From Candidatus Heimdallarchaeota archaeon (lineage in GTDB: Archaea; Asgardarchaeota; Heimdallarchaeia; Heimdallarchaeales; Heimdallarchaeaceae), in NCBI GenBank assembly GCA_019057375.1, contig DXJF01000040.1:1-51359 (forward strand): a stretch of 51,359 bases of DNA, in the 5' to 3' direction. Position numbers and translations under genes: made by a program. Below, piece after piece: positions 12,922-32,679 of this stretch (position 1 is its first letter; every line of letters begins with the position of its first letter). Below the pieces are notes generated by a model. It saw nothing but the letters and a program-made list of their open reading frames with translations, did no database searches and was not told where the DNA came from.

Positions 12922-12995
12922 TGGCAGACCCAAGGCGATTTGAACGCCTGCCACAGGAACCAGAATCCCGTATCCTTCCACTAGACGATGGGTCT
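12922..12995 (-). tRNA. tRNA-Gln(CUG), CCA encoded, A1-U72, G73
   Basis: AGACCCA TC GTCTAGTGGAAGGAT A CGGGA TTCTGGT TCCTG TGGC AGGCG TTCAAAT CGCCT TGGGTCT G CCA folds as a full cloverleaf. Confidence 0.92.
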
Positions 12996-13082: not shown

Positions 13083-13811
13083 ATGTCGGTAAAATATTGC
13101 ATGAAGAAAATATTCATTACTGGCGCAAGCAGAGGGTTGGGATTAGAATTTACTAAGCAATATCTGAAAAAGGGTGAAATTGTCATAGCAAGCTGTAGAA
13201 AACCAGAAAAAGCTGATGCTCTAAAGGAGTTAGAAGCTAAATTTCCTAGTAAGTTAAATATTGTTCAACTTGATGTGGTAAATGAACAATCTAGAAATGC
13301 TGTTTTTGAGAAAATTGAGAAAGATTTTGGTAACATTGATATTCTCATTAACAATGCTGGAATAATTTCAGGAAATGAAAAAGAATCTTCAATTCTTGGA
13401 GAAATTTACAAAGAGGATTTCAGTAAAGTTTTCTTAGTTAATTCAATTGCTCCTTTACTAATGAGTGAGAAATTCTTACCCTTATTAGAAAAAAGTGAAG
13501 GAGCTAAAATCATTAACATTTCTTCTCAAAATGGAAGTATAGCAAGTAGAAACGTTGGTGGAAAGTATTCCTATGCAGCAAGTAAGGCAGCTCTCAACAT
13601 GATAACCAAAATATTGTCAAATGATTTGAGAGATCAAGGTATAACAACAATAGCAATTCATCCAGGTTGGATAAAAACTGATATGGGAGGTTCAAACGCA
13701 CCTCTAGAAATAGAAGAACCGATTTCAAAAATAATAGATTTGACAGATAGAAGTGGAATATCCGAATCAGGTAAATTTCTAGATAGAGAAGGAAACGATG
13801 TTCCTTGGTAG
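13083..13811 (+). CDS. SDR oxidoreductase (C-factor/CsgA-like)
   Basis: TGASRGLG, NNAG, YAASK, HPGWIKTDMGG, W end. Confidence 0.92.
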   Translation: MSVKYCMKKIFITGASRGLGLEFTKQYLKKGEIVIASCRKPEKADALKELEAKFPSKLNIVQLDVVNEQSRNAVFEKIEKDFGNIDILINNAGIISGNEKESSILGEIYKEDFSKVFLVNSIAPLLMSEKFLPLLEKSEGAKIINISSQNGSIASRNVGGKYSYAASKAALNMITKILSNDLRDQGITTIAIHPGWIKTDMGGSNAPLEIEEPISKIIDLTDRSGISESGKFLDREGNDVPW

Positions 13812-13829: not shown

Positions 13830-14558
13830 ATGAAAAACATGAGAAGAATTTTGATCACTGGAAGTAGTAGAGGATTGGGTTTCGAATTTGTAAGACAGTT
13901 ATTAGAAAATGGGGATAAGATTATTGCCTGCAATAGAGATCCTTTCAGATATTCAGATTTTTTGGAATTAAGGGATAAATTTGGGGAGAAACTAGTTCTT
14001 GTTGATTTGGATGTTTCTAGTAAAGATTCTATTGATAATGCTTACTTTCTAATCTCTAAAGAAATAGATGGGTTGGATATACTGATTAATAATGCTGGTA
14101 TCCGCTTTGGAGGAGATGAGAAGTTTAATGATGAATTGGGTAGATTGTAAAAAGAGGATTTTGGTAAGATTTTCACAGTAAACTCTGTTGCACCATTATT
14201 GATTGTTGAGAAGTTTTTGCCCCTAATAAAAACTGGAAAGAACCCCATTATTGTTAATATTTCATCAACAAGTGGGAGTATAGGTAGAAGAAGTCGTAAA
14301 GGAGGAGGATACAGTTATAGTGCAAGTAAGGCAGCATTGAATATGATCACTAAAGCACTTTCTATAGATCTGAAAGAAGATGGAATTACAGTTGTTTCTA
14401 TTCATCCTGGTTGGGTTAAAACTACAATGGAATACACAGAAAACGCACCATTAACAACTTATGAATCAATAAAGGGAATGAAAAAGGTAATTGAAAATCT
14501 GTCTATAGAAGAAACTGGAAAGTTTTTTGATTGGGAAGGAAACGAATTACCTTGGTAA
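13830..14558 (+). pseudogene. Tandem SDR paralog interrupted by one in-frame TAA (14148-14150)
   Basis: ORFs 13830..14150 and 14199..14558 share a frame; reading through gives DELGRL*KEDFGKIFTVNSVAPLL, colinear with the paralog's ILGEIYKEDFSKVFLVNSIAPLL. Confidence 0.85.
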
Positions 14559-14591
14559 ACATTATACTTGCTCAAAGAATGGAAAATGAGT

Positions 14592-14666
14592 TGGTAGCCC
14601 TGAGAAGATTCGAACTTCTGTCTGTAAGCCTAAACCTACAATGCTTGGCCACTACACTACAGGGCT
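14592..14666 (-). tRNA. Gln-like tRNA gene with non-canonical anticodon arm (6-nt loop UUUAGG; UUA or UAG depending on register)
   Basis: AGCCCTG TA GTGTAGTGGCCAAGCAT T GTAGG TTTAGG CTTAC AGAC AGAAG TTCGAAT CTTCT CAGGGCT A CCA; acceptor, D and T arms intact; identity undetermined. Confidence 0.75.
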
Positions 14667-14700
14667 ATAATTTTAACTAATTCTCTTCTTTTCAAGTACA

Positions 14701-14710
14701 GATTTTAAAT
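14701..14710 (-). promoter_or_regulatory. Putative TATA box (ATTTAAAATC) with purine-rich BRE-like run for the atypical tRNA
   Basis: Same 10-mer occurs upstream of tRNA-Gln(UUG) at 14893-14902; preceded by GAAAGGAAGG. Confidence 0.4.
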
Positions 14711-14761
14711 CCTTCCTTTCGAACCTATATAACATAAATATTTGCTTTTAGAAAAGAGGTT

Positions 14762-14769
14762 AAAAAAAA
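14762..14769 (-). terminator. Oligo-T terminator after tRNA-Gln(UUG)
   Basis: T8 two bases after the encoded CCA. Confidence 0.5.
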
Positions 14770-14771
14770 TT

Positions 14772-30791: not shown

Positions 30792-31230
30792 TTTTTTCAC
30801 CTAATTGTTTTCTAGTATTGTAGCTTTGACTTAGTAGGAATCTTTCTTGAAGTTTCACCGTTTTAAACGTTCTAAGTAAATAGAGTAGTTTTCAATATTA
30901 AATATCATAAACGAAGTCAATTTTCGTTAGGGATACCATTTTTCTTCATAATCGAGCATTACAGTTAGTCAATCATATAACTATTCATATCTTTAAATAG
31001 TTATTCTTTTATTATCCTATATATTAATAAGTTCTTATAATAATTATTAAGTAATATTGTGATGAATCTATGATTAATTAAAGTAAAGTATAATTAATAT
31101 GTTGTTTTCAATAGTAATTACTATAAAAGAAAGCTTAAAAGATGATATTTTTCTTTGTTTAATTGGAAATAATCTTTTAAAATACCAATCTATTTTATAC
31201 ATAACTGATTAATTATTTGAGTTGATTGAG

Positions 31231-32679
31231 ATGAGACCTACTATCAATATTCTTGAAAAAGAACTAAAGGAAAAAGTTGTAATAGAAGCAATGGAAATAC
31301 TAGAAGAACTCGGTTTTTTTGTCGAAAATGATGAAGCAATACAAATCCTACAAAATGAAGGATTAAATGTTGACACAATTAACAGACGAGTAAAAATCCC
31401 TCCAGATCTTATTAAGAAATCATTAAAAACTGCCCCCTCATCAGTTCCGCTCTATGATAGAGACGGCAATTTAGTTACTAAATTAGAGGGAGACAATATC
31501 TGTTTTGACCCTGGTTCAGCAGCACTTAATGTTTTAGATCCAGAAACTAATGAAATTCGATCCGCGGTTACAAAGGATTTTGTTAATTTCACTAAGGTTG
31601 TTGATCAACTTGAACATATACATGCTCAAAGTACAGCTATAATTTGTTCAGATGTACCAGAAGAAATTGGTGATAGATATAGAATGTTAATTTCATTGAT
31701 TTACTCAAAAAAACCAATTGTAACTGGAACATTTGCAAAAGAATCATTTGAAGTAATGAAAGATATGTTGGTAGCTGTAAGAGGAAGTGAAGAAGAACTA
31801 AGAAAAAAACCTCTTGCCATATTTGATGCTTGCCCCTCACCACCTTTAAAATGGAGTGACTTGACATGTCAAAGTATAATTGATTGTGCTAGATATGGCA
31901 TCCCTTCTGAATTTGTCTCTATGCCAATGACAGGTGCTAATGCACCAGTTACTATTCTCGGAGCAATCGTTCAACATGCAGCAGAAACATTAGCTGGATT
32001 AGTTATAACTCAACTTGTATCTCCAAGAGCTCCTGTAATTTGGGGAGGTTCTCCCGCAGTTTTCGATCTACGAAAGGCTACCACACCCATGGGTTCTATT
32101 GATACTATGATTCTTGATCTCGGTTATGTTGAAATTGGCAAATATCTCAATCTACCTACTCATACTTATCTAGGTATGTCAGATACCAAGATACTTGATA
32201 TGCAATCTGGATTTGAATCTGGTATGGGAGCTCTTTTAGCTGGAATCAAGGGGGTAAACATGATTTCTGGAGCTGGTATGATTGATTTCGAAACAACTCA
32301 AAGTATTCAGAAAGTTGTCATTGATAATCAGATGTGTGGAATGATTCACAAATTCAACAAGGGTATTGTTCAAAGAGATGAACCTATTGCAAAAAATCTG
32401 TTAATCGATTTGGAAGAGAAAACTCATTTACTTTCACATGATCACACATTGAAATGGTTCAGGGAGGAACATTACATTCCTAATCAAATTATCGATCGAT
32501 CAACCAATGAAGAATGGATAAACAAAGGAAGAAAATCTGTTACTCAAAGAGCAACTGAAGAAGTAGATAAGCTCTTGAAGAAATATTCAGGTAGTTCTTT
32601 AGATAAAGAGAATATTTCTAGTCTGATAAACATAATGAGTTACAAGGATATAGATTTTAGAAAGTTACTAGGGATTTAA
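31231..32679 (+). CDS. Non-pyrrolysine trimethylamine methyltransferase (MttB/MtgB superfamily)
   Basis: SPPLKWS, SMPMTGANAPVTILGA, GAPVIWGGS-like APVIWGGS, SDTKILDMQSGFES, GVNMISGAGM; Ser (TCT 32218-32220) at the Pyl-equivalent position. Confidence 0.9.
   Translation: MRPTINILEKELKEKVVIEAMEILEELGFFVENDEAIQILQNEGLNVDTINRRVKIPPDLIKKSLKTAPSSVPLYDRDGNLVTKLEGDNICFDPGSAALNVLDPETNEIRSAVTKDFVNFTKVVDQLEHIHAQSTAIICSDVPEEIGDRYRMLISLIYSKKPIVTGTFAKESFEVMKDMLVAVRGSEEELRKKPLAIFDACPSPPLKWSDLTCQSIIDCARYGIPSEFVSMPMTGANAPVTILGAIVQHAAETLAGLVITQLVSPRAPVIWGGSPAVFDLRKATTPMGSIDTMILDLGYVEIGKYLNLPTHTYLGMSDTKILDMQSGFESGMGALLAGIKGVNMISGAGMIDFETTQSIQKVVIDNQMCGMIHKFNKGIVQRDEPIAKNLLIDLEEKTHLLSHDHTLKWFREEHYIPNQIIDRSTNEEWINKGRKSVTQRATEEVDKLLKKYSGSSLDKENISSLINIMSYKDIDFRKLLGI

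Follow-up and report, generated by a model that had tools for sequence, protein, structure and literature searches.

We analyzed a tRNA-Gln-like gene with a 6-nt anticodon loop, located in a glnS-tRNA-Gln cluster of a Heimdallarchaeota genome, and conclude, from comparison of sequences across the family, that it is probably an expressed and selectively maintained tRNA-Gln mimic that acts outside codon reading. The body of this tRNA is conserved, the anticodon loop is short and variable, and the standard isoacceptors are present alongside, as expected of a non-decoding mimic. Throughout, X denotes the gene, G000 the genome that carries it, and the window the whole stretch of DNA analyzed, that is, one entire contig of 51 kb (51,359 nt) from a metagenome-assembled genome of 3.47 Mb with 33% GC and intron-bearing tRNA genes. 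The first-pass annotation of this DNA had put forward readthrough of ochre codons, considered a pseudogene or an assembly error equally possible, and mentioned a regulatory or decoy non-coding tRNA among the options; the comparative evidence favors the last of these, does not support the ochre reading, and refutes the pseudogene and the assembly error.

Direct reading of X gives an acceptor stem AGCCCUG/CAGGGCU with A1-U72, A73 and an encoded CCA; a D stem GUGU/GCAU with the loop AGUGGCCAA; an anticodon stem GUAGG/CUUAC of 5 bp (14639-14635 / 14628-14624) enclosing the 6-nt loop UUUAGG (14634-14629); a 4-nt variable region, AGAC; and a T arm AGAAG-UUCGAAU-CUUCU. The Rfam tRNA model RF00005 matches X with 50.2 bits (gathering score 29, E 7e-8), placing it within the tRNA fold, and in the resulting alignment the anticodon loop is one position short. 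ARAGORN labels the gene 'tRNA-???' and reports a 2-nt 'anticodon (ta)', which corresponds to a 6-nt loop. The D and T stems are separated by 21 nt in X versus 22 nt in both tRNA-Gln(UUG) and tRNA-Gln(CUG). Thus, the intact acceptor stem (including A1-U72, A73 and CCA), D arm and T arm described initially are borne out by direct reading and by Rfam, and the count of 21 versus 22 nt, together with the GUAGG/CUUAC stem and the UUUAGG loop, was correct. When the isolated anticodon arm was folded with ViennaRNA, a 6-bp stem with a 4-nt loop was obtained, so that the arm may close further than the 5-bp form. The coordinates of X and of the features around it are collected in Table 1.

Table 1. Gene X and associated features of the window.
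Feature	Coordinates	Strand	Details and evidence
tRNA-Gln-like gene X	14592..14666	-	72 nt + encoded CCA; 6-nt anticodon loop; ARAGORN, Rfam, orthologues
Anticodon arm of X	14624..14639	-	loop at 14629-14634; variable base 14631 (A here; U/C in relatives)
T-run directly 3' of CCA	14583..14586	-	putative archaeal terminator
Upstream block, consensus TAGGTTYMAARGRAAGGATTTAAAATCT	14699..14727	-	putative BRE/TATA promoter of X
tRNA-Gln(UUG), standard, loop CUUUGAA	14772..14847	-	105 nt upstream of X; ARAGORN + Rfam
tRNA-Gln(CUG), standard	12922..12995	-	ARAGORN + Rfam
GlnRS, 674 aa	14919..16943	-	Pfam tRNA-synt_1c + both C-terminal domains; NCBIfam glnS
SDR gene, convergent with X	13830..14558	+	one in-frame TAA, 14148-14150

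According to a 2022 review, A73 and A1:U72 are features of archaeal tRNA-Gln. X has both, and its nearest similarity is to tRNA-Gln genes, so that its body is that of a tRNA-Gln. The YUG anticodon of tRNA-Gln is missing: the loop reads UUUAGG here, and UUG remains only in the UUUUGG allele of one relative (G013). X also departs from an elongator tRNA, with its 7-nt loop, U33 and fixed anticodon, because the X loop has 6 nt in all seven genomes that carry the gene and on two metagenome contigs.

The neighboring 674-aa enzyme is a true GlnRS: the NCBIfam model TIGR00440 (glnS) matches it with 697 bits against a cut-off of 426, and the adjacent GlnRS noted in the first-pass annotation is confirmed. 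A second class Ic synthetase of the genome, encoded on contig C3, is presumably the GluRS. All X-bearing genomes hold both standard genes, tRNA-Gln(UUG) and tRNA-Gln(CUG). The tRNA-Gln(UUG) genes of G009, G011 and G006 are 100% identical to the copy in the window, while X differs among the genomes. In four other genomes tRNA-Gln(UUG) occupies ~108 nt (G010:C30:6394-6501, G013:C50:6207-6314, G024:C173:20342-20449 and G018:C352:803-910) and matches the window copy exactly only at positions 1-59, which suggests a non-canonical T-arm intron of ~32 nt in these copies that is absent from those of G000, G009, G011 and G006. Farther along the window, Rfam reported a match to PYLIS_3, the pyrrolysine insertion element of mttB (43.3 bits, 32176-32275); it falls inside an uninterrupted MttB-family ORF (31222-32679) without an in-frame TAG, and is probably a coding-sequence similarity rather than a recoding signal.

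The region immediately upstream of X is conserved as well. The block that spans about -62 to -35 has accumulated few substitutions across all seven X genomes, whereas the flank beyond it is unalignable between the more distant ones. Within the block, the TATA-like TTTAAAA (14703-14709) lies at -43 to -37 from the mature 5' end, and a purine-rich plus TTTAAAA element is found ~35-55 nt upstream of many tRNA genes of G000. The 10-mer ATTTAAAATC is common to the upstream regions of X and tRNA-Gln(UUG), so that the identical TATA-like 10-mer reported at first is indeed present. Downstream, a T-rich tract follows CCA in all X orthologues and in nearly all G000 tRNA genes. As judged from these motifs, X is equipped with a putative local promoter and terminator of the tRNA type, which would indicate that X is transcribed and selected.

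In a BLAST search against 60 relatives, X was matched over its full 75 nt in six further genomes of the genus, each a separate species, with identities of 88-99%, and ARAGORN found the same 6-nt loop in each of the six orthologues. A pattern that fixed only the D arm and the spacing recovered the same seven of the 31 genomes of the family (G000, G006, G009, G010 (AB_125), G011, G013 and G024), or seven of the 25 in the genus. Two further contigs came from a scan of metagenomes. Its presence in six other genomes and on two metagenome contigs shows that the 6-nt loop is not a one-off error; being seen in seven independent assemblies and on those two contigs, it is not the 1-nt assembly error that had been considered equally likely. 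Matches to the loop pattern in Woesearchaeota, Methanosarcinales, Haloferacaceae and one other archaeon turned out to be chance hits to intron-containing tRNA-Gln genes. No X was found in the syntenic glnS/tRNA-Gln clusters of G001, G004, G005, G012, G017, G020 and G023; in genus members without X, the slot beside the SDR gene is taken by the standard tRNA-Gln(UUG), or else X is just missing from the cluster. Given that only seven of the 25 genomes have the gene and that these seven clusters are without it, any function of X is dispensable.

To assess selection on the structure, we used the six distinct X sequences and the 21 pairs of the cloverleaf. All 21 pairs are intact in all six sequences. 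Two pairs (7-66 and 29-41) changed on both sides, pairs 28-42, 30-40, 31-39 and 49-65 vary via G-U intermediates, and eight extra pair types are observed; four of the five anticodon-stem pairs vary among the sequences and are always paired. In total, pairing is kept at all nine variable stem positions. The observed covariation values were matched by 18-25 of 500 shuffles, the signal being carried by only six distinct sequences. No variation occurs in the D, T and variable loops; among the unpaired positions, only position 9 and the fourth base of the anticodon loop vary. As a neutral yardstick we took the fourfold degenerate sites of the neighboring SDR gene; at these sites most genome pairs have identities of 0.41-0.53, values close to saturation given this composition, versus 88-100% for X.

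These data bear directly on the possibility that X is a decaying relic, i.e., a redundant tRNA-Gln copy that suffered a 1-nt deletion and was kept by chance, hitch-hiking or gene conversion. The patchy distribution (seven of 25 genomes in the genus) fits such a history, as do the faster evolution of X compared to the standard tRNA-Gln(UUG), whose sequence does not differ (100% identity) between these genomes, and the apparent exchange of X alleles between species. However, a relic would not be expected to remain 88-100% identical where neutral sites are saturated, to preserve pairing at every one of the nine variable stem positions with loops invariant except for the one anticodon-loop base, or to keep its promoter block within diverged flanks. 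Broken stems, a lost promoter and divergence resembling that of silent sites, the marks of a pseudogene, are not seen, and the gene, with its stems paired, is retained in six other genomes. The relic reading was already disfavored and we regard it as improbable; the equal standing that the first-pass annotation gave to a pseudogene is refuted by the conservation of X, its stem pairing and its promoter block.

A divergent sequence at the end of a contig of G018 (L011:1-200) shares with X the promoter and the initial 26 nt and continues with different anticodon and T arms; the anticodon arm is CGAGG-CCCUGGA-CCUCG, with a 7-nt loop containing C33, and is unique in the genus. This variant may be a recombinant allele or a chimeric assembly, the latter being suggested by its position at a contig end and its uniqueness.

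The anticodon loop of X has the general form UUUNGG, where N is A, U or C and differs between close species. The loop is UUUAGG in G000, G024, G009, G011 and one metagenome contig, UUUUGG in G013, and UUUCGG in G006 and G010. For example, G000 and G013 are sister genomes with flank nucleotide identities of 96% (SDR region) and 93% (GlnRS region); despite this, their X genes carry the A and U alleles, respectively, and have six differences. At the same time, X of G000 shares 99% identity with its counterparts in G024 and G011, which are far more distant genomes, and X of G000 together with the spacer to tRNA-Gln(UUG) (window 14560-14770) is of the G024/G011 type. Judging by these identities, a patch of ~200 bp with X appears to have been swapped between species. 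Evidently, X alleles that differ at the middle loop base have been exchanged across species without harm, which is hard to reconcile with a codon-reading tRNA in either register (UAG/UUG/UCG or UUA/UUU/UUC). The conservation of UUU and GG on both sides of the variable base suggests that some factor reads the loop.

An unusual decoder could be envisaged, in which X would read a sense codon through its 6-nt loop (UAG/UUG/UCG or UUA/UUU/UUC), or would read two bases only and thereby promote a -1 frameshift at particular sites. The body, the promoter and CCA of X are intact, as a decoder would need, and the G013 allele UUUUGG retains UUG; short loops are able to decode doublets, according to old in-vitro work. 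However, the change of N between the sisters G000 (A) and G013 (U) means that such a decoder would be retargeted, the standard isoacceptors are already there, and no target site was identified. In our judgment, this possibility is quite improbable.

We also considered X as a structural signal, namely a tRNA-like processing element of a neighboring transcript or an att site for integrating elements. Variable DNA is inserted between tRNA-Gln(UUG) and X in several genomes (2.4-3.8 kb in G009, G010 and G013; ~1.5 kb in G006), and in G009 (C72:4124-6538) a copy of the 3' end of tRNA-Gln(UUG) is located directly upstream of X, resembling the duplicated att site that integration of an element leaves behind. 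However, the duplicated att-like segment is derived from tRNA-Gln(UUG), not from X, and compensatory changes along the entire cloverleaf are left unexplained. As to a neighboring transcript, the promoter of X is its own and the T-run comes straight after CCA, so that nothing is fused to X. We therefore assign little probability to a structural signal.

The likely source of X is indicated by comparison with other families. Families f5 and f6 have tRNA-Gln(UUG) genes with a G37-type loop, YUUUGGA (e.g., loci L009 and L008), to which X is 80-82% identical; its identity to the tRNA-Gln(UUG) of its own genus, with the loop CUUUGAA, is only 66%. These identities make X look like a retained or acquired tRNA-Gln of the second type that lost one loop base; indeed, the X loop of G013 is the UUUUGGA loop of G048 (f6) minus its last base. 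Canonical archaeal tRNA-Gln(UUG) of the G37-loop type shares with X A1-U72, A73, the D loop AGUGGCCAA, GAC in the variable region and the T loop UUCGAAU; it differs in that its loop is a 7-nt YUUUGGA, whereas X has a 6-nt UUUNGG in which the equivalent of U35 or G36 varies, and in that X is an extra gene, present in addition to the two normal isoacceptors. Derivation of X from a second-type tRNA-Gln(UUG) by loss of one loop base, followed by retention for an off-ribosome role, is reasonable but unproven.

A related arrangement occurs in another genus. In G026, the cluster next to glnS contains a third tRNA-Gln-like gene (L048:2229-2302), which follows an intron-bearing tRNA-Gln(UUG) at a distance of 13 nt and precedes tRNA-Gln(CUG). 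The ARAGORN label of this gene is tRNA-Stop(tta), yet its anticodon arm folds as a 6-bp stem around the 5-nt loop UUUAU; positions 1 and 72 are mismatched (A1·A72). It is ~70-74% identical to X, and common descent of the two genes is possible on the strength of this similarity. The occurrence of a related gene with a 5-nt loop in the same glnS-tRNA-Gln cluster of another genus supports the interpretation of X as a non-decoding mimic.

The most specific proposal of the first-pass annotation was that X can display UUA, by means of a bulged fold with a 7-nt loop, and serves as an ochre-readthrough tRNA. In this scenario, the A allele would expose UUA by opening or shifting of the stem and would act as a weak or conditional suppressor of UAA/UAG, for which the nearby SDR gene would be a client. 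The X loop does permit UUA to be drawn, and the g3 relative, that of G026, is called tRNA-Stop(tta) if its A-U closing pair is opened. However, UUA is not conserved, because the fourth loop base can also be U or C, and UUA is then absent; the UAG seen in a third register is not conserved for the same reason. The bulged fold, for which a covariation check had been suggested, loses the pair 30-40 (A-U) in G006 and G010, i.e., in two of the six distinct sequences, and shows less covariation, whereas the plain 5-bp/6-nt fold is 100% paired. The g3 gene itself folds with the longer stem and the 5-nt loop described above. In ciliate tRNA-Gln(UUA) and E. coli supB-type suppressors, the anticodon loop has 7 nt and U33 and the anticodon is fixed. 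X resembles these ochre/amber suppressors in its Gln-type body and in the UUA trinucleotide of the window allele; it differs in the 6-nt loop, the unconserved UUA and a genome without TAA recoding.

The last point follows from the analysis of stop codons in G000. TAA terminates 53% of 1421 long ORFs and is thereby the most frequent stop. We then scanned stop-to-stop frames with a codon-usage score for in-frame stops that have coding-like sequence on both sides and no nearby start. This yielded 16 TGA, 10 TAA and 6 TAG candidates, so TAA is not enriched. A Pfam scan of the read-through translations, with an X residue placed at the stop, found no domain split by the stop in nine of the 10 TAA candidates. 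The usage of TAA as the prevailing stop, in-frame TAA being less frequent than TGA, and the single split domain led us to reject genome-wide TAA recoding; neither conserved TAA clients nor TAA avoidance, one of which would accompany an ochre suppressor, is found in G000. The 16 frames interrupted by a single TGA could represent selenoprotein genes, pseudogenes or adjacent genes.

The only demonstrably domain-splitting in-frame TAA found in G000 is that of the SDR gene, 440 nt from X, a proximity that would fit a suppressor. The two halves of the SDR protein match positions 3-98 and 99-190 of the Pfam domain adh_short. In six orthologues adjoining X, however, the corresponding codon is TAT/TAC (Tyr) in four, and CAC (His) or TTC (Phe) in the others, and never a Gln codon; the sister G013, with an SDR protein 97% identical, reads TAT. 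The gene is intact in three other genomes with the A allele, and the in-frame TAA is confined to G000. This TAA either arose by a recent change from Tyr to stop in a single genome or is an error of its consensus sequence, and its adjacency to X is a curious coincidence; beyond this adjacency, nothing speaks for even a weak suppression by X. An intact tandem SDR paralogue (13083-13811) could make good the loss. Taken as a whole, the ochre suppressor is a very unlikely explanation of X, and the UUA-displaying readthrough tRNA of the first-pass annotation is not supported.

An extension of the same idea would make X an adaptor that is retargeted by the loop base: UAA would be read by the A allele, giving conditional ochre readthrough for which the SDR gene is a client, AAA or GAA would be read by the U and C alleles, and the alleles would pass between species by recombination. 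If true, X would represent a naturally occurring, polymorphic tRNA for recoding, with a 6-nt loop, in archaea closely related to eukaryotes; we give this reading only a very slight chance.

We thus return to the mimic interpretation. The body of X seems complete for making and folding a tRNA, with a promoter of the tRNA type, an oligo-T stop, D and T loops competent for the L shape, A1-U72, A73 and CCA. The 6-nt loop with a freely varying middle base would not support efficient decoding, since a change of N would send a Gln-type tRNA to other codons; to our knowledge, 6-nt anticodon loops cannot decode. If X does not decode, it would act through the tRNA body, as a mimic, and may serve as a decoy, a regulator or a carrier of an amino acid kept off the ribosome. 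One point against this interpretation is the conservation of UUU and GG: the loop matters, although a pure 'upper half' mimic would have no need of these bases.

Non-decoding tRNAs and mimics are known, for example, the Staphylococcus non-proteinogenic tRNA-Gly, the Bacillus cereus 'tRNA-Other' and the Haloferax t-elements. Like them, X keeps a complete tRNA body under selection, is redundant with normal isoacceptors and lacks a fixed anticodon. Those mimics are bacterial or haloarchaeal and none is of the Gln type, whereas X is a Gln-type gene of a Heimdall archaeon; moreover, the Staphylococcus cell-wall tRNA-Gly keeps a normal 7-nt loop. Full-text literature searches (6-nt anticodon loops; GlnRS in Heimdall archaea) retrieved no description of such a gene.

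If X is a mimic, its partner could tentatively be sought in the Gln-tRNA machinery beside it, either GlnRS or GluRS with the GatDE-type amidotransferase, although we consider this assignment doubtful. Among the proteins examined (GlnRS and GatE-type), none co-occurs specifically with X, both being family-wide; a link between X and GatDE was rejected as non-discriminating, given that a GatE-type gene is present throughout the family, with or without X.

The distribution of the two routes to Gln-tRNA provides the context for such a role. GlnRS scores above the curated cut-off in families f1, f5 (part) and f6, and not in f2-f4. GatE-type genes form two score classes, 570-650 bits and ~390-440 bits: the window's family, f1, has the lower class only (~390-410 bits), both classes occur in f6, and the genes of f3 and f4 belong to the higher one. 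Since every GatE-type gene passes the NCBIfam cut-off, we do not claim that the indirect Gln-tRNA route was lost. One f6 genome, G048, holds both GlnRS and a high-scoring GatE, as well as two tRNA-Gln(UUG) genes, of which one (L049:2125-2234) has an intron and the loop CUUUGAA and is located next to glnS, and the other (L008:1501-1576) has the loop UUUUGGA and is located elsewhere; G048 may contain two parallel Gln-tRNA systems.

It should be noted that calls such as 'tRNA-???' and 'tRNA-Stop' in these genomes are not evidence of recoding, and annotators should treat them with caution. Heimdallarchaeia are the archaea nearest to eukaryotes. A 2022 review states that all archaea lack GlnRS; against this statement, the window's family is unusual in having GlnRS together with a GatE-type gene. 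As a regulator, a decoy or an off-ribosome carrier, X may be tied to the coexistence of the two Gln-tRNA routes or to the hand-over between them.
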